Counted from the stretch's first letter, positions 4,208-25,496 are shown. The stretch: DNA of 32,000 nucleotides from Dickeya solani IPO 2222 (GCF_001644705.1 NZ_CP015137.1:1980001-2012000); one strand, 5' to 3'. Notes: generated by a model from the letters alone, not told the origin. Numbers and translations: made by a program.

Positions 4208-4307
4208 ATCCCGAACTCTCTGTGCTTTCTCTTATAGAGATATAAAGGGCCCGATGGCGCTCACCATCGAGCCTGACATTGCTCACTGCTTAAAACAGAC
4301 GTTGAAG

Positions 4308-4360: not shown

Positions 4361-4402
4361 ACAGCGCTGCCATCGCCCATAAATGTGACGTGATAGATAG
4401 TC

Positions 4403-6010: not shown

Positions 6011-6050
6011 TACATGAACTCCATTGTGGATGTTGTGTGTCAGTCAGACC

Positions 6051-6171
6051 TGTTGTTGTCGTCGCAATTGTTGTCATCGCAATTTTTTCATCGCGATTGT
6101 TGTTATCACGACTGTTGTCATTGCAACGTTGCTATCGCGATTGGGATTATCGCGACGATTTTTATCGCGGT
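6051..6171. repeat. Array of eight degenerate ~15-bp tandem repeats 40-160 nt upstream of the dppA ATG
   Basis: Units on the + strand: 6051 tgttgttgtcgtcgcaat, 6069 tgttgtcatcgcaat, 6084 tttttcatcgcgat, 6098 tgttgttatcacgac, 6113 tgttgtcattgcaac, 6128 gttgctatcgcgat, 6142 tgggattatcgcgac, 6157 gatttttatcgcggt. In dppA sense the consensus is about AUYGCGAUGACAACA. Confidence 0.85.
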
Positions 6172-7261
6172 GGTCTGTACTTTTCTCTGTTTCAGCCCGA
6201 GGAACGCGTCCGGAGACTGATGCAATACTAAGCAGGGAGAGACAACAGTGCGGGACAAGCAGGAAAACCCCCGCTAGCCCTGTCGGATCAACCATAATGA
6301 TTCCAGGTATTCTGCCGCCCTCCTCCTTGTGACGCCCACAATGTGTCAACAGATCACAATCGCGTCAATATAACCTGTTAGGATTTACAAACAAAAACCA
6401 CAGAATCATCATGGTATAAAGTTAGCGTAAATCACCACTTTATTGGTGATAAAGTCCGCAAAATAACAAAAGAACAACAGGCAGCACCACAAAAACAGCA
6501 TCAGACAATAATTATCACCACGCAAGAACTCATAGGAAAATCCTCTCGAATGGTGAATTACCGCACAATAAAGCGTGTTAAAAAGGTTAAAATCAGGTGA
6601 AAATACTGACAAAACCCTGACAGGGATGATGTATTCCTATCATCCCTGATGTCCATTCTCTAACTATTTGCGCACTATAAAAAAACTTTATACCACCGCG
6701 GCAAAAGCACCGAGCGTAGAGCACGCCGTTCGGACAGTCACCACATTACGCCCGCTGGTTTCTTCCCTGCTTGCCACAGTATGGCAGAAAAATGGCGGTT
6801 CTGTCGGATAGCAAAACCTTGCCGGCCTATTCCGGCCGCACTCCCATCGCCCTGAAATTTTATTTATATAACTTTTTAAATTTTATTTTTTCTTTATCCC
6901 TGCCGTGTTATTTCTAATAGCTAAATTCAACCACCTCTCTAAATAATCCCACCACAAACACTCACAAATTAATTTTAATTACAAAACTACGAATTAAGTT
7001 ATTTAAAGACGAATTGCTGTAAGGTTCACAATTCTTTCACGTTTGTAGTGAATGGCTATTATTTTTAACATTTACCCATGCTAGATTACCTAAAGAACAT
7101 ACTGCAATAAAAATAACATCGCCTTTTTCTTTTGATGGTGTGTCGCATGGCTACTGTACTGAACACCTATAACTTAACTGTGCGCCCATAACGCAATTTT
7201 CCACGTCTTGCAGAGCAAGTTGCTTATCTCTGTCCTATGCCGCTACAACAGGGTGAATATA

Positions 7262-8605
7262 ATGAAAAATATTGAAACTGAAATCATGAGCGATAACGCG
7301 CTCACCACCGCCACACCATCAGGTCTACTGGAAAGCCTAAATAAAACGCGCATTGGATCAGTGCCGTTTATTCTTTTCCTGGTCATTTCCGCCGTTGTAT
7401 TTATTGCGTCCTATGCCAGTTATTTGCCTAAAAACATGATCGGCGGATTCGCTGTTATTATGACCATGGGATTCCTGTTGGCTTATATCGGCCAGCGTAT
7501 TCCGGTGCTGAAAGAAATCGGCGGTCCGGCGATTCTTTGCCTGATGGTACCGTCCATTCTGGTGTATTTCCATCTGTTCAACGCCAACACGCTGGATACC
7601 GTCAAGCTGTTGATGAAAGACGCCAACTTCCTCTACTTCGTCATCGCCAGTCTGGTGGTGGGCAGCATTCTCGGCATGAACCGCGTCATCCTGATTCAGG
7701 GCATGATCCGCATGTTCATTCCGCTGGTGATAGGCACCGCCACAGCGGTGGTGACCGGCCTGCTGGTGGGTAAACTGTTTGGCTACAGCTTCTATCACAC
7801 CTTCTTCTTCATCATCGTGCCGATCATCGGCGGCGGCATCGGCGAAGGCATCCTGCCGCTATCGCTGGCCTATTCCGCCATCCTCGGCCAGGCGCCGGAC
7901 GTGTACGTCGCCCAGTTGGTGCCTGCCGCCGTTGTCGGCAACATCTTCGCCATCATCTGCGCCGGCGTGCTGGCCCGCATCGGCGTATGGCGCAGCGACC
8001 TGAACGGTAACGGCAATCTGGTGCGCAACGAAGCCGATAACGCGCTGTTTGCGGTGAAAGACGCGCCGAAAACGGTGGATTTCCATCTGATGGGCGGCGG
8101 TCTGCTGCTGATCTGCACCTTCTTCATCGTCGGCGGACTGTTTGAAAAAGTGCTGCATATCCCCGGCCCGGTGCTGATGATTCTGATCGCGGTGCTGTGC
8201 AAATACGGTCGTGTTATCCCATCCAGCATGGAAACCGGCGCCAACAGCTTCTACAAGTTCGTGTCCAGTTCGCTGGTGTGGCCGCTGATGATCGGTCTGG
8301 GCATGCTGTACGTGCCGCTGGAAAGCGTGGTGGCGGTGTTCTCCGTCGGTTACGTGGTGGTGTGCGGTTCCGTGGTGCTCTCAATGGCGCTGATCAGCTT
8401 CTTCATCGCGCCGTACCTGAAGATGTACCCGATTGAAGCCTCCATCGTGACCAGCTGCCACAGCGGTCTGGGCGGCACGGGCGACGTGGCGATCCTGTCC
8501 GCTTCCAACCGCATGTCGTTGATGCCGTTCGCGCAAATCGCCACCCGTATCGGCGGCGCTTCTACCGTGATCGCCGCCACCCTGCTGCTCGGCTGGCTGG
8601 TGTAA
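7262..8605 (+). CDS. citS: 2-hydroxycarboxylate transporter family carrier (CitS-like citrate/Na+ symporter)
   Basis: About 447 codons and multi-TM. The C-terminal motif GLGGTGDVAILSASNRMSLMPFAQIATRIGG resembles the CitS GGSGDLEVLSACNRMNLISYAQISSRLGG region as I recall it. It lies next to a CitA/CitB-type two-component system. I chose ATG 7262 (GGGTGA RBS) over the TTG at 7208. Substrate (citrate or malate) is not decidable here. Confidence 0.8.
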   Translation: MKNIETEIMSDNALTTATPSGLLESLNKTRIGSVPFILFLVISAVVFIASYASYLPKNMIGGFAVIMTMGFLLAYIGQRIPVLKEIGGPAILCLMVPSILVYFHLFNANTLDTVKLLMKDANFLYFVIASLVVGSILGMNRVILIQGMIRMFIPLVIGTATAVVTGLLVGKLFGYSFYHTFFFIIVPIIGGGIGEGILPLSLAYSAILGQAPDVYVAQLVPAAVVGNIFAIICAGVLARIGVWRSDLNGNGNLVRNEADNALFAVKDAPKTVDFHLMGGGLLLICTFFIVGGLFEKVLHIPGPVLMILIAVLCKYGRVIPSSMETGANSFYKFVSSSLVWPLMIGLGMLYVPLESVVAVFSVGYVVVCGSVVLSMALISFFIAPYLKMYPIEASIVTSCHSGLGGTGDVAILSASNRMSLMPFAQIATRIGGASTVIAATLLLGWLV

Positions 8606-8710: not shown

Positions 8711-9433
8711 TTATTCGCAGTACTGGCGCAGCGCGTCCTGTTTCTCCGGTAGCAATCGGTAGAGATAGACCGGGCGGCCGGTGGAGCCGTAGAGAATGTT
8801 GGTGTCGAGAATGCCGGTGTCAGCCAAATAGATCAGATATTTACGGCAAGACACGCGGGAGATGCCAATGGCGTTGGCCAGCATCTCGGTGGAGAACTCC
8901 GCCCCCTGATTGCTCTCGACCCATTCGCAGACGGTGCGCAGCGTCAGGCTGGTCAGCCCTTTCGGCAGTTTCTTGCGCTCCACCGTCGGGGTCCCGCTGG
9001 TGCGGCGAATCAGATTATCGATGTCCGACTGCGCCACGAACTCACGGTGTTTGAGCAGATTGGCCTCTTCCCGATAGGCGGTCAACGCCTGCTCGAAACG
9101 GGCAAACTGGAACGGCTTGATCAGGTAGTCCACCACGCCGTAATGCAGCGCTTTTTTGATGGTATACACATCGCTGGCCGACGAAATGATAATCACGTCC
9201 GTGTGTTCGCTGAATTCACGGATCGTGGGCAGCAAATCCAGACCATTATCCTGCTGCATGTAGATATCCAGCAGCACCAGATCAATCTCGCAGTCCGGCT
9301 GCATCAGCAGATTTCGCGCCTGCTGCAGCGTCGGCACCGTCGCGTAGCAGCTAAACCCGGAAATCTGATTCAGATAACACTTATTCAACTCCGCCACCAT
9401 GGCGTCATCATCGACGATCAGTACATTTATCAT
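8711..9433 (-). CDS. citB: CitB/DpiA-type response regulator
   Basis: Receiver domain (INVLIVDDD..., phospho-acceptor context LVLLDIYM, ...IKP) plus a C-terminal HTH (TEMLANAIGISRVSCRKYLIYL), as in CitB/DcuR-family regulators. I prefer ATG 9433 to the TTG 9439 used by the ORF track. Confidence 0.85.
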   Translation of the reverse strand: MINVLIVDDDAMVAELNKCYLNQISGFSCYATVPTLQQARNLLMQPDCEIDLVLLDIYMQQDNGLDLLPTIREFSEHTDVIIISSASDVYTIKKALHYGVVDYLIKPFQFARFEQALTAYREEANLLKHREFVAQSDIDNLIRRTSGTPTVERKKLPKGLTSLTLRTVCEWVESNQGAEFSTEMLANAIGISRVSCRKYLIYLADTGILDTNILYGSTGRPVYLYRLLPEKQDALRQYCE

Positions 9434-9468
9434 GGTCAAACTGCCTTAATCATGGTCAAACTGCCTTG
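9429..9468. repeat. 20-bp tandem duplication (19/20 identical) spanning the citA stop and citB start
   Basis: 9429-9448 atcatggtcaaactgcctta and 9449-9468 atcatggtcaaactgccttg are directly adjacent. The single difference creates the citA TAA stop (9446-9448). Confidence 0.95.
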
Positions 9469-11059
9469 CTTGATACGGGATATTCACGAAAAACTGGGTG
9501 TAAACGTCCGGTTCGGATTCAAAATCAATCGTACCGCCGATTTTTTCCAGACTCTGCCGGGTGAGATACAGGCCAATGCCGCGTCCGGAGCCTTTGGTGG
9601 AAAATCCCTCCTGGTAAATGCGCTGCTGGATATCCGGTGCAATGCCCGGCCCATCGTCGCTCACCGTGCAGTGTAACTGCCCATCCTGATGATGGAAGGT
9701 CACGCTAATCTCGCGATTTTCCAGACCAGACAAGGCATCCATCGCGTTTTCGATCAGGTTGCCCAGCACGGTGATCAGCTCATTGGTGGCCTGGGAGTCG
9801 TCGGTATCCGGCAACAGACTGTCTTCGCTGATCGACAACGTCACGCCCAAATCCCGTGCCCGATTGATTTTACCCAACAGGAACCCGGCAATCACCGGAG
9901 ATTTTACTTTTCGGATAATCGAGCCGATTTCCGCCTGATAATTATTGGCGGTTTTTAAAATATATTCTTCCAACTGCGGGTAATATTTCAAATGCAGCAT
10001 GCCGAGAATCACATGCAGCTTGTTCATGAATTCGTGTGACTGGGCGCGCAGGGCATCGGCGTAATACGACATCCCGGTCAGGCGCTGCAGCAGTTGGCTG
10101 ACTTCCGTTTTATCGCGGAAGGTGGCGATGGTGCCGATGATATCGCCCTTCACCACCACCGGCACGGTGTTGATCAGCAACAGGTTGCCGTTGAAATTGA
10201 TTTCCTCGTCCTGCCGCGGCGCACCGGTTTCCAGCACCTTTTCCAGATTCATCAGCGCCGGCCAACAGCTAATGGTGCTGCCGATCGCCAGCGTTTCGCC
10301 GGACCCATGCTGGCTGAAAAACCGCTTGGCTTCGTCGTTGATGATGGTGACACGCAGGTCGGTATCCACCGCGATCACCCCCTCCTTGATTTGTTTGAGC
10401 ATCGCGTTGCGTTGTTCGAACAGATTGGAGATTTCAAACGGTTCAAAACCCAGCATGATGCGCTTGAGGGTTTTCACCAGGAAATAGGTGCCGAGCAGGC
10501 CGACCAGCGCGCCGAACAGGATGGTCCAGGGAATAATCCAGCGGTTTTCATTAATGACCGACTGCACGCTGGACAGCGAAATCCCCACCGCCACCACCCC
10601 GAGCTGCCGGTTATTTTCGTCAAAAACCGGCGTGAACACACGTAGCGCCGGGTCCAGCACCCCACGGTTCACCGCAGTATTCTCCAGCCCCAGCAGCGCC
10701 GGATAGAGGTCATCGCCGATAAAATGGCGGCCAATCTGCCCCGGTTCCGGATGGGAATGACGAATACCGTCCATATCGGTAACGATCACAAATAGCAGGT
10801 GGTTGCGGCTTTTTACGTCCTCGGAAAAACGCTGTACCCGCATCGGGTCGCCGATGCCTCTCAGGTCGTCCACTACGATCGGCGAATTAGCGACAGTGCG
10901 GGCGATGGCGAAGGCTTTGTCCTTGAGGTGAGTTTCGGTCAGTTCGGTGATACGGAAAAACAGCAGCGCGTAAACCACCAGCAACACCGAACCAATCACC
11001 GCCGACACCATCAGAATGATCGACGTGCTCAGTTTCAGCGGTGTCTTTTTCTTACTCAT
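9446..11059 (-). CDS. citA: CitA/DpiB-type sensor histidine kinase
   Basis: Two TM segments flank a periplasmic PAS-like domain, followed by a cytoplasmic PAS. H-box RAQSHEFMNKLHVILGML, N-box LGNLIENAMDA, G-boxes DDGPGI and GSGRGIGL. I chose ATG 11059 (MSKKKTPLKL...) because GGAG lies about 8 nt upstream. The ORF-track start at 11083 is possible. Confidence 0.85.
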   Translation of the reverse strand: MSKKKTPLKLSTSIILMVSAVIGSVLLVVYALLFFRITELTETHLKDKAFAIARTVANSPIVVDDLRGIGDPMRVQRFSEDVKSRNHLLFVIVTDMDGIRHSHPEPGQIGRHFIGDDLYPALLGLENTAVNRGVLDPALRVFTPVFDENNRQLGVVAVGISLSSVQSVINENRWIIPWTILFGALVGLLGTYFLVKTLKRIMLGFEPFEISNLFEQRNAMLKQIKEGVIAVDTDLRVTIINDEAKRFFSQHGSGETLAIGSTISCWPALMNLEKVLETGAPRQDEEINFNGNLLLINTVPVVVKGDIIGTIATFRDKTEVSQLLQRLTGMSYYADALRAQSHEFMNKLHVILGMLHLKYYPQLEEYILKTANNYQAEIGSIIRKVKSPVIAGFLLGKINRARDLGVTLSISEDSLLPDTDDSQATNELITVLGNLIENAMDALSGLENREISVTFHHQDGQLHCTVSDDGPGIAPDIQQRIYQEGFSTKGSGRGIGLYLTRQSLEKIGGTIDFESEPDVYTQFFVNIPYQARQFDHD

Positions 11060-11137
11060 CTCTCGCTCCGGAATTCGCATCATCGATCCCGCTATCTTAA
11101 CCTGTTCGCACTATTTCTGCGCCATTTCCGCGCGCAG

Positions 11138-11218: not shown

Positions 11219-12631
11219 TTACCACATCCCTAAAACTTTCCACCACAGGCTACCGATGCCCAGCCAGATGGGAATGACCACCAGCCCAACCAGGAAACCG
11301 ATCTTCCACCAGGTTCCCAGCGACACATAGCCGCAGCCGAACATGATCGGGGCTGGGCCGCCGGAGTAGTGCGTGGTCGCCATAAACAGGTTACTGAAAG
11401 CGGCAAACGCCAGCACCGTCAGCACCGGCGGCGCGCCCGCCGCGATGGCGATCGACACGAAAATGGCGTACATGGCGCTGATGTGCGCCACCGCGCTGGC
11501 CATAAAATAGTGGCTGTAGTAGTACACCAGCAGCAACAGGCCCACCATCGGCAGCCAGTGCATCCCGGCGACGGCGTGGCCGGCAATGCCGCCCAGCCAG
11601 GCGATCAGCCCCATCTTGTTCAACTGGGTCGCCAGCATCATCAACACCGCGAACCACACTACGGTGTGCCAGGCTTCTTTCTCGCCGGTTACGTCTTCCC
11701 AGCTCAACGCGCGGGTCAACAACAGCACGCTCAGGCCGCCCAGCGCGGTCAGGGTGGCGTCGATATTCAGCGCCGACCCCAACACCCAAAACACCACCAG
11801 CCCCAGAAACACGCACAGCACAATCCATTCGTTGCGGCTCATCGGCCCCATTTCGTGCAGGCGAGCCTTCGCCAGCTCGCGCATTTCCGGGGTTTTCTTC
11901 AGTTCCGGCGGGTAGAAACGATAGAGCACCAGCGGGATCACGATCAACGACAGCAGCCCCGGCACCAGCGTCGCCGCAGCCCATTCGGTCCAGGTCAGGT
12001 GAACGCCAAACTGGGTCGCCAGTTTGCTGATCAGCGGGTTACCGGCCATAGACGTCATGAACATCGCCGACGTGATGGCGTTGCACTGGAAAATGGTTTG
12101 CACCAGAAATGAGCCGATACGGCGCTGGGTGCCCTGCTCCGGCGTCGAACCGTACGCTTCGGCGATCGAGCGGAACAGCGGGGTGATAATGCCGCCGCAA
12201 CGTGCGGACGTTGACGGCATCGCCGGGGAAAACAGCAGGTCGGTGAACACCAGACCATATGCCAGCCCCAGGCTGCTGTTACCGAGTTTGCTGATGAACA
12301 GAAACCCGATGCGACGGCCGAAACCGGTTTTGATAAAGCTGCGCGAAATGAAAAAGGCGCACGCAATCATCCAGATAGTGGGGTCGCCAAACCCGACCAG
12401 CACATCCTTGACCGGCAGCAAACCAAGCGCCGAGACGGCGGTGATACTGAAAATGGCAATAGCGCCAAGGGGGTAAGGCGAGAGAATCAGACCGATGACC
12501 GTAGCAATAAATATCGCCAGCAGATGCCATGCGGTAGGACTGACGCCTTCAGGAACAGGAACAAACCAAAATATAACGGCTATGCCGAGGATAATAAGAA
12601 GCTTCACTAACCTGCTGTTATTTGCAGACAT
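11219..12631 (-). CDS. DASS (divalent anion:Na+ symporter / CitT-YbhI type) di-/tricarboxylate carrier
   Basis: About 470 codons and multi-TM. N-terminal ...FWFVPVPEGVSPTAWHLLAIFIATVIG... is colinear with the CitT/TtdT N-termini as I recall them. The paired hairpin motifs PSTSARCGGII and HYSGGPAPIMFGCGY are typical of DASS carriers. The start is uncertain: ATG 12631 versus TTG 12646. Confidence 0.8.
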   Translation of the reverse strand: MSANNSRLVKLLIILGIAVIFWFVPVPEGVSPTAWHLLAIFIATVIGLILSPYPLGAIAIFSITAVSALGLLPVKDVLVGFGDPTIWMIACAFFISRSFIKTGFGRRIGFLFISKLGNSSLGLAYGLVFTDLLFSPAMPSTSARCGGIITPLFRSIAEAYGSTPEQGTQRRIGSFLVQTIFQCNAITSAMFMTSMAGNPLISKLATQFGVHLTWTEWAAATLVPGLLSLIVIPLVLYRFYPPELKKTPEMRELAKARLHEMGPMSRNEWIVLCVFLGLVVFWVLGSALNIDATLTALGGLSVLLLTRALSWEDVTGEKEAWHTVVWFAVLMMLATQLNKMGLIAWLGGIAGHAVAGMHWLPMVGLLLLVYYYSHYFMASAVAHISAMYAIFVSIAIAAGAPPVLTVLAFAAFSNLFMATTHYSGGPAPIMFGCGYVSLGTWWKIGFLVGLVVIPIWLGIGSLWWKVLGMW

Positions 12632-12826
12632 ACCAACACCACTCAAGATTAAAACGAAATCAGCCGCTTTTACCGGACGTCCCGTGTTACGAGTGGAGGA
12701 GTTTTTTTATTTCTTCATCACCCTTATTCCGCCGTCCGACAATGCAGACAGCGAGTTTTCCGGCGCGCCATCGCCATTTTCCATGGCGGGATACAGCCTG
12801 ACAAACACAACGGGTACAGCATCAGC

Positions 12827-14621: not shown

Positions 14622-14996
14622 ATGATGACCATACTGAAAAATGCCTCATTGTCGTTCGTACTGTCAGGCGGGATACTGGCGACATGCGGCGGCTGCTCTA
14701 GCGTGATGACCCACTCTGGCGGCGAGCAGGGGTATTATTCCGGCACCCAATCCAGCATGACCACGCTGAAAGACGAGGACACCAGTTGGGCGATGATGCC
14801 GATGGTGGCGCTTGATGTTCCCTTCTCCGCCATGCTGGATACGCTACTGTTACCCTATGACTATTACCGCACCCACAGCGACCACCACAGTACTTCGGCG
14901 CGCGACCGGCTGGAAGAATACGAACGCCGCAAACCGGCGGGCGACCCACCCCGGCCAGCGTTAATACCTGTCTCGGCGAATAACGCCGGTCAGTGA
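14622..14996 (+). CDS. yidQ: YceK/YidQ-family (DUF1375) lipoprotein
   Basis: Signal peptide with lipobox-like ILATCGGC. The motif ALDVPFSAMLDTLLLPYDYY matches the YceK LDLPFSLVFDTLLLPID region. It is divergent from ibpA, as yidQ is in E. coli. AAGG RBS. Confidence 0.75.
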   Translation: MMTILKNASLSFVLSGGILATCGGCSSVMTHSGGEQGYYSGTQSSMTTLKDEDTSWAMMPMVALDVPFSAMLDTLLLPYDYYRTHSDHHSTSARDRLEEYERRKPAGDPPRPALIPVSANNAGQ

Positions 14997-15994
14997 CGTT
15001 CAGCCTGACGGCGATGGATCAGCGTCATAGGGATTATCGCTTTGTGCGGCTGCGCATCGCCGTTTAGCGCTTGCTGCATCGCCTCAAACGCCTGCCCGGC
15101 CCACGCATCCTCGTTCTGGCGCATCGACCACAAGGTATTCGGCAAAAATCCCAGCATGGCGTGTTCATCGAAGGTGCCGATATTAATGTGCGCCGGAATA
15201 TAGCCATAGCGCTCGCGCACCACGCTTAACATCCCTTCCAGCACCGGCAGTGACGACGCGATGAACGCCGGCGGCGGCGCGTCATGCTGGCGCAAAAACT
15301 GCTCCATCATCAACATGCCGTCTTCACGCCGGTTATGGCTGGCTTCCAACACCGCCGGGGTCAGCCCGGCCTGCTGCACCGACTGGTGATACCCGCGCAA
15401 ACGGTCACGAATCGCCGGCTGCTGTACGTCGCCGGCCATGAAAAACAGCGGCGCGGCAGGCTGGGCGGTCAGCATCGCTTCGGTCAGCGCCGCCCCGCCC
15501 TGCAAGTTGTCACTCATTACCAGCGGCAGTTGATCGATGCCGAAGTCGCGGTCCAGCAGCACCAGCGGCTTTTTCACCACCTTCGCGTGGTGCTGAGCCG
15601 CCTGCAGCGACGACGGCACCACGAACAGCCCGTCGACATTACGCTGCAACAGCGCTTCCACCAGCCGATTTTCGTACTGCGGATCGCTGTAAGAACAGCT
15701 GATCATCAGCTGATAGCCCACCTCGCGGCAACGGGTTTCGAGCTTTTCAGCCAGCGTCGAGAAAAACAGGTTGGATAATCGGGGCACGATCAGCCCCAGC
15801 GTTTCGGTTTTGTTCAGCTTCAGGCTGCGGGCGACGTGATTGACGGTGTAACCGTACTCGGTCACGTACTGATGGATGCGTTGCTGGGTTTTGGCACTGA
15901 TCCGATACTGTTCTGCTTTTCCATTCAGCACCAGACGCACCGTGGTCACGGACAGCTTCAAGGCACTGGCAATCTGTTCAATTGTTTTCGCCAT
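14990..15994 (-). CDS. LacI-family transcriptional regulator
   Basis: N-terminal HTH TIEQIASALKLSVTTVRLVLNG followed by a periplasmic-binding-fold sugar-binding domain (334 codons). Its 3' end overlaps the yidQ 3' end by 7 bp (convergent). Confidence 0.88.
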   Translation of the reverse strand: MAKTIEQIASALKLSVTTVRLVLNGKAEQYRISAKTQQRIHQYVTEYGYTVNHVARSLKLNKTETLGLIVPRLSNLFFSTLAEKLETRCREVGYQLMISCSYSDPQYENRLVEALLQRNVDGLFVVPSSLQAAQHHAKVVKKPLVLLDRDFGIDQLPLVMSDNLQGGAALTEAMLTAQPAAPLFFMAGDVQQPAIRDRLRGYHQSVQQAGLTPAVLEASHNRREDGMLMMEQFLRQHDAPPPAFIASSLPVLEGMLSVVRERYGYIPAHINIGTFDEHAMLGFLPNTLWSMRQNEDAWAGQAFEAMQQALNGDAQPHKAIIPMTLIHRRQAERH

Positions 15995-16094: not shown

Positions 16095-17447
16095 TCACAC
16101 ATCTTTGGTCATATCACGGTGCGAAGTTTCCGGCGCTTTCCAGGCGGCGAACGCCGCCACCAGCGCCGCTACCGTGACGTAGGTCGCCACCAGCGTCCAG
16201 GACTCGTTATCCATCGCGGTGAGTCCCTTGGCGATAAACGGGGTGAAACCGCCCGCCACAATCGCCCCCAGCTGTGCGCCGATGGACGCGCCGCTGTAAC
16301 GCACTTTCGGTCCGAACAGTTCGGTAAAGAACGCCGGCTGCACCGCATTAATGGAGTTGTGGGCAATATTAATCAACAGAATGTATCCCAGCACCATCAG
16401 ACCAAAGGAACCGCTTTCCAGCAGATAGAAGAACGGGAACGCCATCGCCGCGGCGCACAGCGCCCCGAAGATATAGATCGGACGGCGGCCGACCCGGTCG
16501 GACAGCGCGCCGAACAGCGCATGCATCGGGAACGCCATCACGCAGGTCGCCATGATCACGTTAAGCATGGTCTGTTTGGGCACGCCCAGCTGTACGGTAG
16601 CGTAGGACACCGCGAACACGGTCGCCATGAAGAACGGCACGCTTTCCGCGAAGCGCAGCACCATGATCAGGCAGACGCTGCGCCACTGTTTACGCAGCAC
16701 TTCCACCACCGGGCTTTGACGACGCACCGGCTCTTGCTCACGCGCCTGCTGTTGCTGCTGTTGTTGCTGGACTTGCTGGAACACCGGCGTTTCATCCACC
16801 TTGCGGCGCATATACAGCCCCACCAGCACCAGCGCTACGCTCAGCATGAACGGCACGCGCCAGCCCCAGGACATCAGTTGATCTTCCGGCAACGTCGACA
16901 CCATGGCGAATATCGCCGTCGCCAGCAACTGTCCGGAAAAACCGCCGGTCTGAGGGATGGATCCCAGCAGGCCGCGACGATTGGCGGGCGCGGTTTCCAC
17001 CACCATCAGCATCGCGCCGCCCCACTCGCCGCCCACCAGAAAGCCTTGCACGAAACGCAACACCACCAGCAGCACCGGCGCCCAAACGCCAATCTGGTGA
17101 TAGGTGGGCAGACAGCCGATCAGAAACGTCGCCATCCCCATACCACCGAGGGTAATCAGCAGCGTCAGCTTGCGCCCCAGCGTGTCGCCCATGTGGCCGA
17201 AGAAGATGCCGCCCAGCGGGCGGGCAATGAACCCCACGCCAAAGGTGGCGAACGACGCCAGCATCGCCGCCATCGGGCTGACGGTGGGAAAGAACAGTTT
17301 GCCAAACACCAGCGCGCTCGCCAGTCCGTAGAGCAGGAAATCGTAAAACTCGATGGTGTTGCCAATCCAACTGGAGATCACCACGCGGCGGATATTGGAT
17401 TTATTGTGCATCGCCTGGTGTTGGGATAATTCCACGGAAATCGACAT
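16095..17447 (-). CDS. MFS transporter, metabolite:H+ symporter (MHS) family
   Basis: 450 codons and 12 TM-like. MHS-type N-terminus SSWIGNTIEFYDFLLYG and loop motif RPLGGIFFGHMGDTLGRK, as in KgtP/ShiA/ProP-type carboxylate carriers. GAGGAA RBS. The central loop carries QQVQQQQQQQQ. Confidence 0.88.
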   Translation of the reverse strand: MSISVELSQHQAMHNKSNIRRVVISSWIGNTIEFYDFLLYGLASALVFGKLFFPTVSPMAAMLASFATFGVGFIARPLGGIFFGHMGDTLGRKLTLLITLGGMGMATFLIGCLPTYHQIGVWAPVLLVVLRFVQGFLVGGEWGGAMLMVVETAPANRRGLLGSIPQTGGFSGQLLATAIFAMVSTLPEDQLMSWGWRVPFMLSVALVLVGLYMRRKVDETPVFQQVQQQQQQQQAREQEPVRRQSPVVEVLRKQWRSVCLIMVLRFAESVPFFMATVFAVSYATVQLGVPKQTMLNVIMATCVMAFPMHALFGALSDRVGRRPIYIFGALCAAAMAFPFFYLLESGSFGLMVLGYILLINIAHNSINAVQPAFFTELFGPKVRYSGASIGAQLGAIVAGGFTPFIAKGLTAMDNESWTLVATYVTVAALVAAFAAWKAPETSHRDMTKDV

Positions 17448-17560
17448 GATGTTCCTCGCTTTATGATTTTATCGCCCTTCAGGCAAAGCCATCCGGGCGC
17501 CGCCGTACCCGGAGGTCGGCGGGGGGTGTAGGGTACAGGTTTTTTTGAGTGCGACAACGA

Positions 17561-17839
17561 CTACCCGCTGAATATCAGCGCGCAGTAAACGATATTTTTT
17601 CGATTCCAGGTGTAGGTCACATGTAACGTGTCGCCATCGGCAATAATGGCGGGATAAAAGAACTCGCCGGGTTCCTGCTCAAGATCGAGGCCGCTTTCCC
17701 AGTGCTCGCCGTTATCGGCGGAACAGGCCACCCGCAGCTGCCCGTCCGGCAATGCCGCCACGGTTGAGGCGTGGCAGTTGCCGAAACAGTCATGCCCTCC
17801 GGGCAGGACGAATTGCTGTGTTGTCGTTGTCAGCCTCAT
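17561..17839 (-). pseudogene. Remnant of a BNR/sialidase-fold (exo-alpha-sialidase-like) gene with a large in-frame internal deletion
   Basis: In these 92 codons, the first ~35 aa (FVLPGGHDCFGNCHASTVAALPDGQL) look like the N-terminus of BNR-repeat-like proteins. The last ~55 aa (SADNGEHW = a BNR Sx[DN]xGxxW repeat; GEFFYPAIIADGDTLHVTYTWNRKNI) look like the C-terminus of the same family, which is usually 350-400 aa. Only 407 bp separate the flanking genes, so the propeller core is missing. A good SD (GAAGGA) is retained. Confidence 0.55.
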
Positions 17840-17854
17840 CAGGATGTCCTTCAG

Positions 17855-18814
17855 TTACCGGAGCGATGCCGGGAGCTGCGTCTCCAGCGTCTGGCCCAGC
17901 CGGAGCATGCTCTCAATCGCCTGCGGGAAGAAACTCTCGCCGTAAGCCGCGCTGTTGCGCACCCGGCAAACGTGGGTCGAGAACGTACCGGATTGCTGCT
18001 GATAGAACTTGGCGCAGGCCGGATAATCGAGAAACTCCACCAGCGCCGCCGTACCGAGATAGTCCGCCAACTGCTGTGCCGCCGCCGGATGCTCGCGCCA
18101 GTGCTCGAACAGCCACACGTACAGCTGCGGATGGAAGTTGGCCATCACCCCGCTATAAGCCTGACAACCGGCCTGCAGCGACGCCAGCAACGTCTGGCTG
18201 TTGGCATTCGCCAGATGCAGGCGCGAGCCCTGCGCCAGTTGTAACCGCCGGCGAATAGTCGGCAGATCGCAACAGGTGTCTTTAATGAAGGTGTAACGCC
18301 CGCTGCGCGCGCACCAGGCGACCGTCTCGTCAGACAGCAGCCGTTTGTAAGGGTAAGGACATTCGTAGATGCCCAGATCCACCTGTGCGGGCAGTTGCGC
18401 CGTCAATGCCTGCAACCGTACCAGCGCCTGTTCGTCCGGCTCGCCCGCCAGCGCCAGCCGGTTGCTGATCAGGATCACGCCGTCCACGCCGGTTTCCGCC
18501 ACGCCGTTCAGTTGGTCCACCTGCTGGCTGAACGCGCTGGCGGTATGGCCCGAGGCCACCACCGGCACCCGACCGTCCACCTGCGCCACGATAAAGCGCA
18601 CCAGTTCACGGGTTTCCGTATCGCTTAAGAAAAACATCTCGCTGGACTGACAGGCGGCGAACAGCCCGTGCACGCCGGCATCCAGATACCACTCCACCAG
18701 CCGCGCCAGCGAGGCATAGTCGATTTCGCCGCGCGCGTCGAACGGGGTGAGCATCACCGGCCAGATGCCGGCGTACTTGCTTTCATCGTTAAAAGATGGG
18801 TTGTCGTCATTCAT
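17855..18814 (-). CDS. DapA/NanA-family (class I, Schiff-base) pyruvate aldolase/lyase-like protein
   Basis: 319 codons. N-terminus WPVMLTPFDARGEIDYASLARLVEWYLDAGVHGLF is of the DHDPS/NAL type. The candidate catalytic Lys lies in YTFIKDTC. The ATG lies 3 nt after the isomerase stop, with GGAG upstream (translational coupling). Confidence 0.8.
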   Translation of the reverse strand: MNDDNPSFNDESKYAGIWPVMLTPFDARGEIDYASLARLVEWYLDAGVHGLFAACQSSEMFFLSDTETRELVRFIVAQVDGRVPVVASGHTASAFSQQVDQLNGVAETGVDGVILISNRLALAGEPDEQALVRLQALTAQLPAQVDLGIYECPYPYKRLLSDETVAWCARSGRYTFIKDTCCDLPTIRRRLQLAQGSRLHLANANSQTLLASLQAGCQAYSGVMANFHPQLYVWLFEHWREHPAAAQQLADYLGTAALVEFLDYPACAKFYQQQSGTFSTHVCRVRNSAAYGESFFPQAIESMLRLGQTLETQLPASLR

Positions 18815-18817
18815 GAT

Positions 18818-20488
18818 TTACTCCGCCAGCAACCGGTGAGCGTCGCCCGCCGTCCATACCTGAATATGCTGCGTCAGCGCCTGTGCGACAAAAGCTTTCA
18901 GCACCTCGGTGAGCTTATCCTCGTCCACATACGCCACCGTCAGGTGGTTGCTCTGGTGGCCCGCCATCAGGTCGTCGCGGGTGACGCCGTCCAGCACCGC
19001 GTTGAGCAGCGGCCACTCGTAGTTGGTGGCGCGGCGGCGGCGTTCGAACTCGTCGGCGGGCAATTCCACCGCCGTGCCGGTGCCGACATGCATCATCACC
19101 TGCGTCCCTTCGTAATGCGCGCGCGCCCAGACAAAACGCCCCGCCTTGCCCTGCCCGGCGATGGTGGAACCGCCGTACGGGAAGAACATCGGCGGCTGAC
19201 GATAGCCGGTGGCGCCGGCGATGCCGCCTTTGAGATGAGCGAACGGCACCGCGCCGGAAATTTCCAGATCCCAATAGAAGATGCCCTGATGCTCACTGCC
19301 CCAGCGAATATCGTGCAGCGTGGTTTCCGCCGGCAATCCCAGGCCGTGCAGCAGGTGCCACAACATCACCTGCGGAATGGCGCTGCCCATGTCCACCTCG
19401 TTGATACAGGGGATGGCGACATCGGGACGAATCGGCTCGCCCTGTTCATCCGTCAGTGGAAAGCGCTCCGCGTTGCCGATGGCCCCTTCGGCGAAATCGG
19501 ACGCGGCGCAGCTGTCCTTCAGCCCTTGCTGGTACTGCACCCCGACCGCCGCCAGCCCGAAACGCTGCGTAAAGCGCGCCATAGCGATCATCATCGCGCA
19601 CTGTTCCAGCACCTGGTCGCGCGTCAGCTGGCGACTGCCGTCATCACCGAACTCAAACCGCATGCCGCGCTGCTCATACCACGCCAGACAGCTTTCCCGC
19701 AGGGCGTACGGCACTTTCGCCATCTCCACCAGCAATGCCGACTGAGACAACGATTCGATCGGCATACCGATAGTCACCATCGCCTGCTGCGGGAACACGC
19801 CGTTGATCATCCCCATACAGAAGGTGTCGAACAGCCCGATAATCGCCTTATGCCGCAGAATGTATTCCCCGACCTGACGGCCAATCTGACCGGCCGGGGT
19901 CGCCAGCACCGGGGGAGACGCCGCCACCGGACGCAGATAGCCGGTCTTGTGACTCACCGCGCCGTCGCGCAGCCAGGTCGCCAGCCCCTGACGGAACGCA
20001 TCATCTTCGAACGTCGCCGACCACAACCGGGAATAGGTACGCCCGAGGCTGGTCAGGCAGCCCGCCATGCACAGCATGCCCACCAGCCCCGGCCAGGTGC
20101 CGTCGAAGTTGGCCAGCAGCAGCACCGGGCCGCGGTGGTGCACCAGCGACGGTGCGATATGGTGGGAATACTGCCAGGCGGTCAGCAGCACGATGACCGG
20201 CGCGTCGGGATCGAGCGCGGCGAACACGTCGCTGCCCTCCCGCTGGCTGCTGATGAAGCCGTGCCCGCAGGCATTATCCACCGCATGGGCGCGCGTCATG
20301 CGGTATCCCAGTTGCTCCAGCGCGCTCTGCAGGCGGCTTTCAAACTGCTGCTGGGTCGGCCAGCAAGTCAAGTTGGCGGATTCCCGCAGATCCGCATTGG
20401 TAACCAGCAAAACCTCGCGTTCGCCGACGGAAAGCCGACGGGGTGAAGCGGGAAGATTCAGTGTCAACGAAACACATTGTTCCAACAT
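18818..20488 (-). CDS. L-fucose/D-arabinose isomerase-like sugar isomerase (divergent FucI-family)
   Basis: 556 codons. The overall layout and C-terminal half (…CINEVDMGSAIPQ…, …TNYEWPLL…, …AGHQSNHLTVAY…) resemble the FucI catalytic domain as I recall it. The assignment is at family level only. AGGAG RBS. Confidence 0.65.
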   Translation of the reverse strand: MLEQCVSLTLNLPASPRRLSVGEREVLLVTNADLRESANLTCWPTQQQFESRLQSALEQLGYRMTRAHAVDNACGHGFISSQREGSDVFAALDPDAPVIVLLTAWQYSHHIAPSLVHHRGPVLLLANFDGTWPGLVGMLCMAGCLTSLGRTYSRLWSATFEDDAFRQGLATWLRDGAVSHKTGYLRPVAASPPVLATPAGQIGRQVGEYILRHKAIIGLFDTFCMGMINGVFPQQAMVTIGMPIESLSQSALLVEMAKVPYALRESCLAWYEQRGMRFEFGDDGSRQLTRDQVLEQCAMMIAMARFTQRFGLAAVGVQYQQGLKDSCAASDFAEGAIGNAERFPLTDEQGEPIRPDVAIPCINEVDMGSAIPQVMLWHLLHGLGLPAETTLHDIRWGSEHQGIFYWDLEISGAVPFAHLKGGIAGATGYRQPPMFFPYGGSTIAGQGKAGRFVWARAHYEGTQVMMHVGTGTAVELPADEFERRRRATNYEWPLLNAVLDGVTRDDLMAGHQSNHLTVAYVDEDKLTEVLKAFVAQALTQHIQVWTAGDAHRLLAE

Positions 20489-20538
20489 AGTATGCTCCTG
20501 GTGTCCTCTCCGGCCTGCGCCGGAAGAAAATGCGGCTA

Positions 20539-22125
20539 TCAGTGACGGCTCATCTGTTGCTGGGCGGCCTGCTGGTAGTCATACATCTGTAAATAAATCT
20601 GGTATTTGGCGTCGTGGAACGGTTGATTGCGGCGATCGGCGCGAATAAGCAGACCGGGCTGCACCATCGCCTGCGCCGCTTGCGGCAGTGAGGGATACGC
20701 GCCGCAAGCCACCGCCCCCAGCAACGCGGCACCGAGCGTGACCGCGTCTTCCTCGCTCGCCAGTTGAATATCGCAACCGGTGATGGCGGCATACTCCCGC
20801 AGCCACAACGGATTTTTGGTGGCACCGCCGCACATCGTCAGCCGGGTAATCTGATGACCGGCCTGATTCAACGCCTCGATAATGTGCCGGGTGCCGTAGG
20901 CGATCGCCTGCAATGTCGCCAGATACAGCCGCGCCAACGCATCCGGCCCTTGCTCCAGCGTCAGCCCCATCACCACACCGCGCGCATCCGGGTTGGCGCG
21001 TGGCGAGCGGTTGCCGTGGTGATCCGCCAACACGTGCAGATGACGAGTCGGCAACGGCTCGCGCCGCTCCAGCGACGTCACCCATTCGTTCAACAATGCA
21101 TACGGGCTGCAATGCTGCCGCTCCGCCTGCGCGGCCAACACCGGCCACTGCGCATGCTGGCGCAATGTCCATTCCACCAGCGCGCCCGCCGCGCTCTGCC
21201 CGCCTTCGTTAAGCCACCACTGCGGCAGCATCGCCCCCCAGTACGGCCCCCACACGCCGGGAACCTCGACCGGCTGGCGGCTGACCAGCATATGGCAATT
21301 AGACGTCCCGCTGATGACGGCAAGGCTGCCCTGTGGTTCGCTGCCCACCAGCGCCAGCCCGCCGGCGTGGGCGTCAATGATGCCGCCGGCCACCACCACG
21401 TTTTCCGGCAACCCCCAGTCGCGTGCCACGTCAGCGGCCAGCAGCCCGGCGGCGTCACCCAGTTGCAGGATACGCGGCGGGATTTTCTGCGGTAGATCGG
21501 CCAGCCCGACCGCCTGCAACAGACCGTCGCTAAAGCGGTTTTCGTGCGCCAGATAGTTCCACTTGCAGGTCAGCGTGCAGACGCTGGCTGCGTCCGTGCC
21601 GGTGGCACGCCACACCAGATAGTCCGCCAGATCGAAAAAGCGCCACACCTGTTGATAACGTGCCGGGAAATGGCGCTTCAACCACAGGATCTTGGGCAGT
21701 TCCATCTCAATGCTGACTTCACCGCCCACATAGCGTAGCGCCTCGTCGCCGGTGGCGTTGATGTCGGCGGTTTCGGCGGCGGCGCGGTGATCCATCCACA
21801 TGATGATGTCCCGCTGCGGGTCGTGCTGCTCGGCCACCGACACCGGCTGCCCTTGCGGCCCGACCGCTACCAACGAGCAGGTGGCGTCAAAGCCGATGGC
21901 GCGCACCAACGCAGGAGCAACCGCCGCTACGCTCAGCGCCTCGCGCACACAAGCGCCGACCGCCTGCCAGATATTCACCGATGACTGCTCCACCACGTGG
22001 GTGCGGGGATGAAACTGTTCGATAGGCCGCACCGCAAACGCCAGGCGTTGGCCATTGCCGTCAAACACCCCGGCCCTGACGCTGGCCGACCCGACATCCA
22101 CACCGATAAAGCAATCGCTTTTCAT
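20539..22125 (-). CDS. FGGY-family carbohydrate kinase, pentulose (D-ribulokinase-like) subgroup
   Basis: 528 codons. The N-terminus CFIGVDVGSASVRAGVFD...VEQSSVNIWQAV is characteristic of the FGGY pentulose-kinase subgroup, and the C-terminal actin-fold motif is MCGGATKNPLW. It is the first gene of the operon. Confidence 0.85.
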   Translation of the reverse strand: MKSDCFIGVDVGSASVRAGVFDGNGQRLAFAVRPIEQFHPRTHVVEQSSVNIWQAVGACVREALSVAAVAPALVRAIGFDATCSLVAVGPQGQPVSVAEQHDPQRDIIMWMDHRAAAETADINATGDEALRYVGGEVSIEMELPKILWLKRHFPARYQQVWRFFDLADYLVWRATGTDAASVCTLTCKWNYLAHENRFSDGLLQAVGLADLPQKIPPRILQLGDAAGLLAADVARDWGLPENVVVAGGIIDAHAGGLALVGSEPQGSLAVISGTSNCHMLVSRQPVEVPGVWGPYWGAMLPQWWLNEGGQSAAGALVEWTLRQHAQWPVLAAQAERQHCSPYALLNEWVTSLERREPLPTRHLHVLADHHGNRSPRANPDARGVVMGLTLEQGPDALARLYLATLQAIAYGTRHIIEALNQAGHQITRLTMCGGATKNPLWLREYAAITGCDIQLASEEDAVTLGAALLGAVACGAYPSLPQAAQAMVQPGLLIRADRRNQPFHDAKYQIYLQMYDYQQAAQQQMSRH

Positions 22126-22137
22126 GCTGAAATCTCT

Positions 22138-22157
22138 TTGCTAAGTCGAGTTAGCAA
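22138..22157. promoter_or_regulatory. Candidate LacI-family operator (20-bp palindrome) in front of the kinase gene
   Basis: ttgctaagtc|gagttagcaa has 9/10 symmetric positions around a central TCGA. It lies 13-32 nt upstream of the kinase ATG and abuts the predicted -10. Confidence 0.5.
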
Positions 22158-22185
22158 TGTATTTTAAGCACAAAGCCGGTGACAA
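22156..22185 (-). promoter_or_regulatory. Putative sigma70 promoter of the kinase-isomerase-aldolase-transporter operon
   Basis: The minus strand reads TTGTCA-N18-TACATT. The predicted TSS falls inside the palindromic operator. Confidence 0.35.
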
Positions 22186-24016: not shown

Positions 24017-25303
24017 TTAACGCATCACCGTCACCACGAAAATCTGGTTGTAGCCATCAATATCCCGCAGATAGGCGATGCGATCGCCATCCGGCGAAAA
24101 CACCACCGCGTCTCCCACCGGCGGCGTTTCGCGGCGCGCGGTCTGGCGAATCAACCGGCCAGATTCGGCTTCGCACAGCATCACGCTGTTGTCGCCAATG
24201 AACGCCAGGTGCCCGCCATCCGGATGCCAGTTGAACGCCGACTGCACCGGCCAGTCGCCCTGCGTCACCTGACGCGGCGCGCCGCCGTTCGGCGATACCG
24301 TCCACAACTGCACTACGCCTCGGTCGTCTTTCATCAGAAATGCAATTTGGCTGCCGTCCGGCGAACTGCGTAACCAGTGGCGCGGCTGATTGACCACGCC
24401 GGGATGCGGCCTGTCGGCGGTGAAGGTGAGCCGTCGCTGACGCACGCCGGCCGGCGGAGCGGGTAAGCGATCGTCGGTGCCGCCCAGCGGCCGATCGCCG
24501 GGGCGGGCATAGTCGTCCAGCAGTTCCGGCAAATCGACGATGAACACCTCCGGCACTTTCTCGCCGCACGCCGACAGCGTATCGCCGATAAACGCCAGCG
24601 CCCAGCGTTGGCGGCGGCCATCCGGGCGCAGGTAGCCGGCGGTTCCCACCCAACCTTCCTCGTAGGCGCGGTTGATGTCATCGCTGCCGGGCCGCGGCTG
24701 CGGCGTGGTGTCGCTCACCAGCACGCAGAAATGGCTGCCGTCGTGCTCGCGCGGATGACGGTGCGGTGCGTCCACCGGATGCAGCGGCACCGCCACCCCG
24801 ACGTTGCGCAGATCCAGCGCCGGGTCGCGCTCGTGCAACACATGGTCGTTGTAGGTAAAGCTCAGCCGGCTACCGTCCGGGCTGAACACATGCACATGGG
24901 AACCGCCGCGCAGCGCGCCGGCCAGATACGGGGCCGTCAGCACGCAGGCATCCAGCGTCGCCGCTTGCTGGCGGTCGTCATCGCGCATCACCACGCCGCG
25001 GCGGTGATGGAAATCGTACCGCCAGTGTTCATCGGGATTTTCCGGGCCGTGGATAAACACATAACGCTGCGGCGCCACCGGGCTGCCGGTCGCCACGCCG
25101 ACATGCGCGCCCTGCCCGGCACGGTAAAGCACCTCGCATTGCCGGGTTTCCACGTTAACGCGTTCGATGGTCAATCCCGTGAATGAAGATCCATGCGGCC
25201 GAACGTCATAAATCAACCATTTGCCATCACATGACCAGATGTTTATATTGGTTAACTGATGTGAAAAAGCATTACGTGTTATCTGACTGTCTTCATTCTT
25301 CAC
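24017..25303 (-). CDS. yidR: YidR-like DUF3748 protein (TolB-like beta-propeller C-terminus)
   Basis: Long colinear resemblance to E. coli YidR as I recall it (FIHGPENPDEHWRYDFHHRRG, GGSHVHVFSPDGSRLSFTYNDHV, DLRNVGVA, INRAYEEGWVG, LPAPPAGVRQRRLTF). I chose GTG 25303 (VKNEDSQITRNAF...) by analogy with the YidR N-terminus, with a GAAGG RBS. The ORF-track ATG 25417 is the alternative. Confidence 0.75.
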   Translation of the reverse strand: MKNEDSQITRNAFSHQLTNINIWSCDGKWLIYDVRPHGSSFTGLTIERVNVETRQCEVLYRAGQGAHVGVATGSPVAPQRYVFIHGPENPDEHWRYDFHHRRGVVMRDDDRQQAATLDACVLTAPYLAGALRGGSHVHVFSPDGSRLSFTYNDHVLHERDPALDLRNVGVAVPLHPVDAPHRHPREHDGSHFCVLVSDTTPQPRPGSDDINRAYEEGWVGTAGYLRPDGRRQRWALAFIGDTLSACGEKVPEVFIVDLPELLDDYARPGDRPLGGTDDRLPAPPAGVRQRRLTFTADRPHPGVVNQPRHWLRSSPDGSQIAFLMKDDRGVVQLWTVSPNGGAPRQVTQGDWPVQSAFNWHPDGGHLAFIGDNSVMLCEAESGRLIRQTARRETPPVGDAVVFSPDGDRIAYLRDIDGYNQIFVVTVMR

Positions 25304-25496
25304 AGATTTTTCGCCTTCTTGACATAACTTGGCATATCCTAAAAAATCGCTCAAAAAATAACAAAGACAATAAAAATCATTGAGTTGTTTTCCATTCCTG
25401 ACTGTATTTCCCATCAAAAAAATAGAAAGATATCTTCAACAACCTCCGTTTTCCACGAAGGCTAACAGGGCGTAACCTTTCCGTTATCGAAAGGAC

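Follow-up and report, generated by a model that had tools for sequence, protein, structure and literature searches.

Six open reading frames (ORFs) lie co-directionally on the minus strand between positions 14990 and 22125 of the Dickeya solani IPO 2222 sequence analysed here—a 32,000-nucleotide stretch (NZ_CP015137.1:1980001-2012000), referred to below as the window—and together resemble an operon for the catabolism of an acidic sugar. They encode an FGGY kinase (20539-22125, 528 amino acids), an isomerase-like protein (18818-20488, 556 amino acids), a DHDPS-family aldolase (17855-18814, 319 amino acids), a BNR remnant (17561-17839, 92 amino acids), an MHS-type MFS carrier (16095-17447, 450 amino acids), and a LacI regulator (14990-15994, 334 amino acids); the intergenic distances, in this order, are 50, 3, 15, 113, and 100 nucleotides (nt). 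A first-pass annotation made from the sequence alone had described this gene string, noted the 3 nt between the isomerase stop and the aldolase ATG, and supposed a plant-associated enterobacterium as the host. All six ORFs lie where it placed them, the gap is correct (18818 to 18814), and D. solani is a plant pathogen; its family assignments, put through profile searches and structure prediction, all held at the superfamily level.

The first gene is preceded by a sigma-70-like promoter on the minus strand (22156..22185), with a -35 element TTGTCA at 22185-22180, an 18-nt spacer, and a -10 element TACATT at 22161-22156. The site has 9 of 12 consensus matches; the consensus scan is weak alone, with 3 promoter-like sites observed in the region and 2.4 expected in shuffles, and the call gains support because the site is placed directly upstream of an operator and the first gene. 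That operator, the LacI-type 20-bp palindrome TTGCTAAGTCGAGTTAGCAA, spans 22138..22157, 13 nt upstream of the kinase ATG, and overlaps the promoter. It is the sole match in the window even with 2 mismatches permitted (0.05 expected), which bears out the earlier description of a palindromic operator at 22138-22157 over the predicted promoter. The LacI-family gene expected downstream is also present: its product has a PF00356 helix-turn-helix domain (27.7 bits against 27.0) and periplasmic-binding-protein-like domains, and reaches 255 bits, below cutoff, with the FruR/ScrR-like model TIGR02417. From these features it is predicted to be a repressor that binds the palindrome at the promoter. A terminator-like hairpin with a T-rich tail was found by pattern scan on the minus strand, 50 nt downstream of the LacI stop (14925..14939); this is weak evidence, as such sites are fewer (4) than in shuffles (7.0). 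A GC-rich hairpin in the gap between the BNR remnant and the transporter gene is no more stable than shuffles (z = -1.2).

The best-anchored protein of the operon is the kinase. Profile searches find its FGGY_N (PF00370) and FGGY_C (PF02782) domains, it lies above the cutoff of the TIGR01315 pentulose kinase model (549.7 vs 408.7 bits), and it matches PDB entries 3gg4/3l0q with E = 3e-139. It is 61% identical, full length over 516 amino acids, to DarK of E. coli BL21—found by a distant DNA search of E. coli genomes and identified by its position in the fuc locus—and 29% and 23% identical to AraB and FucK, respectively. DarK is the D-ribulokinase of D-arabinose catabolism in E. coli B (cited in PMC12307932), and the earlier call of a pentulose-type, D-ribulokinase-like kinase is upheld. 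In BL21, the dar insertion in the fuc locus has the order ABC transporter, kinase, LacI. The darK-linked LacI protein is 57% identical to that of D. solani, and the intergenic region between fucI and the ABC transporter gene contains this 20-bp operator motif two times, as TTGCTAACTCGAGTTAGCTT and TCGCTAACTCGAGTTAGCAA (L088:734-753 and 973-992), upstream of the inserted genes for the ABC transporter, DarK, and LacI. By sequence comparison, the Dickeya operon and the D-ribulokinase locus of E. coli B thus appear to share one regulator/operator family. Because the kinase is 61% identical to DarK, and because the LacI protein and operator are common to the dar locus, phosphorylation of D-ribulose to D-ribulose-5-phosphate is well supported by homology. 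The predicted chemistry of the two loci (D-arabinose to D-ribulose to D-ribulose-5-phosphate) is the same; however, the dar locus includes an ABC transporter and lacks both an aldolase and a sialidase-fold gene, whereas Dickeya has a carboxylate-type carrier and a DHDPS-family aldolase.

The isomerase-like protein lies outside the curated sequence families. Its Fucose_iso_C score of 28.0 bits is below the gathering score of 29.3, it has no N-terminal FucI domains and no NCBIfam match, and its family (about 1,280 clusters at 50% identity) is separate from the curated FucI/AraA families. Neither the protein nor its family profile matched PDB sequences; fold comparison alone worked. An AlphaFold2 model (predicted local distance difference test score, pLDDT, 76; predicted template modelling score, pTM, 0.79) gave 41 Foldseek matches at E <= 0.001, and every one of them is an AraA, a FucI, a D-arabinose isomerase, or an engineered arabinose isomerase hybrid; the best E is 1e-15 and the next fold comes at 2.5e-3. 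An hhalign comparison with E. coli FucI, at a probability of 54%, places the Mn2+-binding and catalytic residues E337 and D361 opposite E364 and D393, and the His ligand H528 opposite H515 once the alignment is shifted by one residue; the comparison with E. coli AraA was uninformative (probability 1.8%). E364, D393, and H515 are invariant in close members and kept in 14-16 of 20 distant members. The earlier label of a FucI-like isomerase therefore stands for the AraA/FucI fold and, less firmly, for the FucI catalytic residues, but not for membership of the curated FucI/AraA sequence families. The protein of the window matches D. solani proteins (IPO 2222 and others) exactly. NCBI names this family 'signal transduction protein', and some D. 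solani records read 'L-fucose isomerase'; the former name is without support from the modelled fold or from genomic context. Because FucI supplies D-arabinose isomerase activity beside DarK in E. coli B, we infer the same reaction, D-arabinose to D-ribulose, for the Dickeya protein, which falls in another family of the FucI superfamily; the prediction has good support from the fold, the aligned catalytic residues, and gene linkage. The FucI found beside the DarK module in E. coli B would then be replaced here by a FucI-superfamily protein—by analogy, a displacement within one superfamily.

The aldolase passes the Pfam DHDPS model (PF00701) with 79.1 bits against 22.1, and is far below the cutoffs of the models for characterised members: 33.8 and 37.9 bits for the NanA equivalogs (cutoffs 382 and 281), 57.7 for DapA (206), and 63.1 for KdgD (374). 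By sequence it is not a NanA, DapA, or KdgD equivalog, and all 120 of its best homologues carry generic names only. The Schiff-base lysine K178, the catalytic tyrosine Y150, and the S57/E59 carboxylate-binding motif do not vary among 26 sequences, a NanA-like outgroup included, and the lysine and tyrosine line up with their counterparts in YagE and DHDPS, so the assignment to the DapA/NanA family is secure. Pyruvate and D-arabinose are the retro-aldol pair of 3-deoxy-D-manno-octulosonate (Kdo; EC 4.1.2.23). Kdo is suggested as the substrate because the operon is predicted to take up a carboxylate, has neither a dehydratase nor a dehydrogenase, and requires D-arabinose at the next step; we therefore consider the protein a predicted Kdo aldolase, with moderate support.

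Import of a carboxylate is indicated by the carrier, which scores 431.3 bits with the MHS model TIGR00883 (cutoff 443.45) and 433.5 bits with the ShiA equivalog (below its cutoff of 538). Judged by these profiles it is clearly MHS-like and not ShiA, and the first-pass annotation of an MHS-family carboxylate-type carrier fits a score just under the TIGR00883 cutoff. MHS, TctCBA, and TRAP families typically carry carboxylates. An orthologue of the carrier with 69% identity occurs in Rhodovastum, in the same operon layout; other genomes have TctCBA in its place, and TRAP systems lie nearby in Betaproteobacteria. Such substitution of carboxylate-type systems gives carboxylate uptake good support, and the carrier is a predicted Kdo:H+ symporter. 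A CTG/TTG repeat at 16746-16769 encodes a poly-glutamine run, QQVQQQQQQQQAREQE, in its central cytoplasmic loop; the run may be length-variable.

The BNR remnant matches BNR_2 through its C-terminal blade alone, at 27.6 bits (below the cutoff of 31.4). It aligns to residues 1-31 and 293-347 of the intact 350-amino-acid Proteus orthologue and is thus an in-frame internal deletion of about 260 codons that retains the first strand and the last blade of a sialidase-family protein, as the word "remnant" had implied. Among the matches listed, the 92-amino-acid form comes only from D. solani, where it is presumably non-functional; intact versions of 348-369 amino acids occur in D. dadantii, D. zeae, D. 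oryzae, D. fangzhongdai, D. undicola, and D. poaceiphila, and most relatives likewise keep an intact gene. The intact protein is cytoplasmic by the lack of a signal peptide on inspection, and has four S-x-D-x-G-x-x-W boxes, the Asp-box repeats of a six-bladed beta-propeller; the best Foldseek matches of its model (pLDDT 89) are all GH33 sialidases (TM score 0.70-0.76). Y320, an invariant residue, lines up with the nucleophile Tyr of sialidases, and R233 and R290 line up with their Arg2 and Arg3. The position of the FRIP arginine is occupied by an invariant 'CHAST' with His23—matched by position, in our own reading, to the YRIPAL motif of Neu2—and the arginine triad is incomplete. E222, a candidate for the Glu partner of this Tyr, and D50, a candidate acid/base Asp, show at least 90% conservation but are replaced in the Proteus clade. 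The earlier suggestion that sialidase-fold proteins include Kdo hydrolases agrees with the GH33 fold; with His in place of the first triad Arg, Kdo hydrolase activity is not established.

The distribution of these genes was surveyed in 80 species-level loci, classified by tblastn against reference proteins; the survey took in isomerase genes at least 71% identical, an unusually high conservation that extends across phyla, from Enterobacterales to Rhodocyclaceae, Rhizobiales, and Holophagaceae. The isomerase gene adjoins the kinase gene in most of the loci and the aldolase gene of the Dickeya type (DHDPS1) in 53 of them, and BNR_2 occurs in 39. The commonest arrangement (34 loci) is FGGY kinase, isomerase, DHDPS1, BNR_2, and TctCBA. 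Seven loci combine kinase, isomerase, and DHDPS1 with an MHS carrier, and three of these have BNR_2, one without the kinase; in a further 12, isomerase and DHDPS1 stand without any detected linkage to a Tct or MHS carrier (the kinase is present in 10, mostly in Betaproteobacteria, and BNR_2 in two). Eleven loci pair the isomerase with a NanA-like/MR_MLE/SDR module, and in 16, several of them on truncated contigs, neither DHDPS type is nearby. The gene set recurs, sometimes reordered, across Alpha-, Beta-, and Gammaproteobacteria: Rhodovastum has the exact Dickeya layout with BNR_2 intact, Consotaella the same genes in a different order, and Conservatibacter the order isomerase, DHDPS, BNR_2, TctCBA, LacI. 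It is found in Proteus, Klebsiella, Serratia, soft-rot Pectobacteriaceae, bee-gut Gilliamella, and Accumulibacter relatives. BNR_2 is present in all 34 Tct-type operons and in only 3 of the 7 MHS-type operons; from this we infer that BNR_2 may convert a Tct-imported Kdo glycoside, anhydro-Kdo, or dehydro-Kdo into Kdo, and that MHS-type operons, including that of D. solani, would import free Kdo and can lose BNR_2.

Kinase, isomerase, and LacI are orthologous across the cluster types (LacI at 53-64% identity in all of them), and in nearly all related loci (roughly 70) the first gene is preceded, at a distance of 31-56 nt, by the same operator motif. Since the regulator is also common to loci without an aldolase, it probably senses D-ribulose, D-ribulose-5-phosphate, or D-arabinose, not Kdo. 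Taken together, the loci are, as far as their gene content can tell, a D-ribulokinase-based regulon fed by interchangeable carboxylate-type uptake systems and a dedicated class I aldolase. In nine betaproteobacterial loci, the gene directly before the kinase belongs to the DUF386 (YhcH/YjgK/YiaL) family (seven loci: L065:7366-7845, L069, L071, L074:7718-8197, L078, L079, and L081) or encodes an RbsD/FucU mutarotase (L072 and L085:7715-8161); neither query matched in the Enterobacterales operons surveyed. The DUF386/YhcH family is also found in the E. coli sialic-acid operon.

The NanA-like arrangement forms a sister cluster—FGGY kinase, isomerase-like protein, MFS carrier, MR_MLE, SDR, NanA-like DHDPS, GlcG, and LacI—that uses the same kinase, isomerase, regulator, and operator. 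Its aldolase is only 25% identical to that of Dickeya and reaches 274 bits against a cutoff of 281. The cluster is typified by L005:7318-16586 of E. coli FDAARGOS_536, with further examples at L013, L017-L019, L021, L022, L024, L026, L031, L052, and L080; it is present in 82 of the 5,426 complete genomes of E. coli, as well as in Klebsiella, Citrobacter, Kluyvera, Mixta, and Gilliamella, and six of its loci have no kinase gene. The best matches of its MR_MLE and SDR proteins are unassigned racemase-like proteins, L-talarate/galactarate dehydratase, and generic SDRs. One idea is that its substrate could be Ko (D-glycero-D-talo-octulosonate), reduced and dehydrated to Kdo. Other variants were seen alongside. 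Perfect second operators occur at L015:14300, L016:14348, L030:12143, and L054:14132 in Sodalis, Acerihabitans, and Pantoea rwandensis, followed by modules of an SDR, an MHS-like carrier, and a third DHDPS type, which suggests further acid-sugar feeder modules of the same regulon. At a locus of the Firmicute Peribacillus glennii (L090:2119-11693) only BNR_2 (58% identity) and TctCBA (49-58%) are orthologous; it has a non-orthologous DHDPS (29%), an AraB-like kinase (35% identical to AraB), no isomerase-like gene, and an FAD_oxidored protein (PF12831) 53% identical to one in Martelella alba (L035:12766-14280), and may represent an alternative downstream route. In a Propionivibrio metagenome-assembled genome (L061:3748-8645), the stretch directly upstream of BNR_2 contains TRAP transporter genes, a gene for a GFO/IDH/MocA oxidoreductase, and a TIM-barrel gene similar to xylose isomerase, an arrangement that resembles the 2,7-anhydro-sialic acid oxidoreductase route.

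Published phenotypes provide a view of the operon that is separate from its gene content. Weak growth on D-arabinose is recorded for D. solani, D. dadantii, D. fangzhongdai, D. undicola, D. poaceiphila, D. oryzae, D. parazeae, D. zeae, and Musicola, while D. dianthicola, D. chrysanthemi, D. aquatica, and D. lacustris are negative (PMC10319131 Table 8). The 15 of 76 isomerase-cluster members listed include D. solani, D. dadantii, D. zeae, D. oryzae, D. fangzhongdai, D. undicola, and D. poaceiphila, all weak-positive, and none of the four negative species is among those 15. Prodigiosinella has the operon and is D-arabinose positive; Pectobacterium, generally negative, appears only once among the loci. 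A scan of species-representative genomes returned only D. oryzae from the genus though other Dickeya carry the gene, and so does not show its absence from the negative species. The tracking of operon presence with D-arabinose growth across Dickeya species is suggestive, and weak growth fits D-arabinose as an intermediate without its own carrier.

Assembled into a pathway, these genes would act as follows. The MHS carrier would import the acid. In relatives, the cytoplasmic sialidase-fold enzyme may free Kdo from a glycoside or from an anhydro or unsaturated form; this gene is destroyed in D. solani. The DHDPS-family class I aldolase would split Kdo into pyruvate and D-arabinose, the FucI-superfamily protein would isomerise D-arabinose to D-ribulose, and the DarK-like kinase would yield D-ribulose-5-phosphate for the pentose-phosphate pathway. 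Kdo is favoured because the imported acid would be cleaved by a class I aldolase to pyruvate and D-arabinose, and it is the sole natural compound known to us that fits such a cleavage. On balance, we think it probable that the gene string is an operon that serves, under the control of a repressor, to break down Kdo or a close derivative of it. The Kdo route put forward in the first-pass annotation has gained independent support at every step (the DarK identity, fold, residues, and carriers), with Kdo itself still deduced.

In kind, this is a nan-like ulosonic-acid operon with new enzyme families. Like the nan operons, it would import a 2-ulosonic acid, optionally release it with a sialidase-fold protein, cleave it into pyruvate and an aldose with a DHDPS/NAL-family class I lyase, and then phosphorylate a derivative of that aldose; some versions of the cluster even have the DUF386/YhcH-family gene. 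Unlike them, it has a non-NanA aldolase, no NanE, NanK, or NanR, and pentose-specific downstream enzymes, and its type of sialidase-fold protein, a cytoplasmic one, has no FRIP arginine. The reading as a nan-type sialic acid operon was accordingly rejected, as there is no NanA, NanE, or NanK. We also rejected an L-fucose operon (kinase 23% identical to FucK, no class II aldolase) and substrates of the wrong carbon number for a DarK-like kinase: 2-keto-3-deoxynononic acid (KDN), 3-deoxy-D-lyxo-heptulosaric acid (DHA), and heptulosonates. Another dedicated D-ribulokinase-centred locus of an enterobacterium is the Rbl locus found in C. rodentium (RblABCD, RblK, RblI), whose induction depends on D-ribulose metabolism; it differs in the ABC import of D-ribulose itself, a KpsF-like isomerase, and the lack of an aldolase and a cognate regulator (PMC12307932).

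Kdo is present in almost all Gram-negative lipopolysaccharides, in many capsules, and in plant rhamnogalacturonan-II (RG-II). A Kdo aldolase (EC 4.1.2.23) was reportedly purified from Aerobacter cloacae by Ghalambor and Heath in 1966 and, to our knowledge, was never linked to a sequence; its reaction, Kdo to pyruvate and D-arabinose, is the one predicted for the protein encoded at 17855-18814. A 2023 paper states that no Kdo aldolase is annotated (PMC10619137), and a 2025 paper still cites only enzymology from 1966 and 1990 (PMC12199768). Free D-Kdo is secreted, and not consumed, by B. thetaiotaomicron and Flavobacterium during RG-II breakdown, and pathways for free Kdo 'have not been confirmed' (bioRxiv 10.64898/2026.03.13.711244). 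Our literature searches, which extended to mid-2026, yielded no gene for Kdo aldolase or Kdo catabolism and no assignment for this gene combination, in line with the earlier remark that the activity lacks a firmly assigned gene.

Several points weigh against Kdo as the substrate. The assignment draws on sequence comparison, modelled folds, and gene context. The aldolase substrate is deduced only from what the neighbouring genes need, in a family that also holds dehydratases and for a protein whose best NCBIfam matches are weak KdgD ones. The core alone is not Kdo-specific, since the sister cluster has it with a different, NanA-like aldolase; similarly, the LacI protein and operator also control loci without this aldolase, so that induction by Kdo is not implied. 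The alignment to FucI has an hhalign probability of only 54% and matches the His ligand only when shifted by one residue, the phenotype correlation draws on an incomplete list with 15 of the 76 members of the cluster, and BNR_2 lacks the first Arg of the triad, with its candidate acid/base and Glu varying in the Proteus clade.

In another explanation, a D-arabinose/D-ribulose utilisation module (isomerase, kinase, and regulator) could merely be fused to an unrelated acid-sugar module, with the DHDPS enzyme acting, as aldolase or dehydratase, on some other 2-keto-3-deoxy acid to give a product that is not D-arabinose. The regulator, operator, and kinase do occur without an aldolase (in the dar locus of E. 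coli B) and also beside an aldolase module that is not orthologous, the isomerase gene stands apart from either DHDPS type in 16 of 80 loci, and the best NCBIfam matches of the aldolase, weak as they are, are dehydratase models. We regard such a fusion as rather unlikely: DHDPS1 starts 3 nt past the isomerase stop and remains adjacent in 53 loci of three proteobacterial classes, including a reordered version; operons of the Dickeya type (type I) have no dehydratase, dehydrogenase, or semialdehyde-handling gene for another acid-sugar route; and the operon has no neutral-sugar transporter for D-arabinose, on which growth is weak.

A different ulosonic or 2-keto-3-deoxy acid—Ko, 8-amino-Kdo, anhydro- or 2,3-dehydro-Kdo, KDN, sialic acid, DHA of RG-II, or a 3-deoxy-heptulosonate—is an unlikely substrate as well. 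The non-canonical BNR_2, with His for Arg1, accompanies Tct in 34 of 34 loci and hints at an imported derivative that needs conversion, and a GFO/IDH/MocA oxidoreductase adjoins BNR_2 in one locus, as in anhydro-sialic acid routes; however, a kinase 61% identical to DarK and a FucI-like isomerase require a C5 aldose of D-arabino configuration, while cleavage would yield hexoses from KDN or N-acetylneuraminic acid, a C4 uronate from DHA, and a tetrose from heptulosonates. The operon lacks NanE, NanK, and NagA/B-type genes, and octulosonate derivatives would still pass through Kdo, a refinement and not a contradiction. Finally, the locus could be decaying in D. solani, the BNR deletion marking a lost function and the remaining genes being relics. 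The deletion of about 260 codons is indeed fixed in the species, on 35 contigs, but we find decay very improbable, as the other five ORFs are full length, four of them are 55-75% identical to Proteus orthologues, neither the promoter nor the operator is disrupted, four other MHS-type operons are naturally without BNR_2, and D. solani still grows weakly on D-arabinose.

The surroundings of the operon in the window are of a different nature. It is flanked by ibpAB and a DUF1375 gene on one side and by F420-oxidoreductase/HxlR genes, a DUF3748 gene, and uxuR/uxuA on the other, none of which is functionally related. The DUF3748/PD40 beta-propeller protein (24017-25417, 466 amino acids, GC content 0.67) is yidR-like, adjoins an F420-type oxidoreductase pair and an HxlR regulator, and appears unrelated to the operon. 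Upstream in the window are a dppABCDF-like peptide ABC system (275-6010), a region of low GC content (0.425) around 6001-7000, and a citrate-type block consisting of a 2HCT carrier (7208-8605), a two-component pair similar to DpiA/DpiB (8711-11083), and a possibly CitT-like carrier of the Na_sulph_symp family (11219-12646).

Returning to Kdo catabolism, a broader reading takes in the related clusters too and is put forward more tentatively, as something possible: the operon would be the first genetically defined Kdo catabolic pathway, would contain three unassigned enzyme families, and would belong to a D-ribulose-type LacI regulon that includes the sister cluster. The orphan Kdo aldolase would then be a distinct DHDPS-family clade; the isomerase-like protein would represent a new D-arabinose isomerase family, distant from FucI and mis-named 'signal transduction protein'; the cytoplasmic sialidase-fold enzyme of relatives, with its His-Arg-Arg site, would turn an imported Kdo derivative into Kdo; and the sister cluster, with its NanA-like lyase, MR_MLE, and SDR, would handle a second acid ending in D-arabinose, possibly Ko.

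The gene set makes the 60-year-old orphan Kdo aldolase activity directly testable. If the assignment is true, it would close an orphan EC number with the first genes for an activity known since 1966, and the aldolase would be of interest for the synthesis of Kdo analogues. A misleading annotation carried by thousands of sequences would be corrected. For Dickeya, the operon offers a possible explanation of the classical D-arabinose trait that separates species and biovars—and, more widely, Kdo cross-feeding would become traceable in gut, rhizosphere, and wastewater communities.

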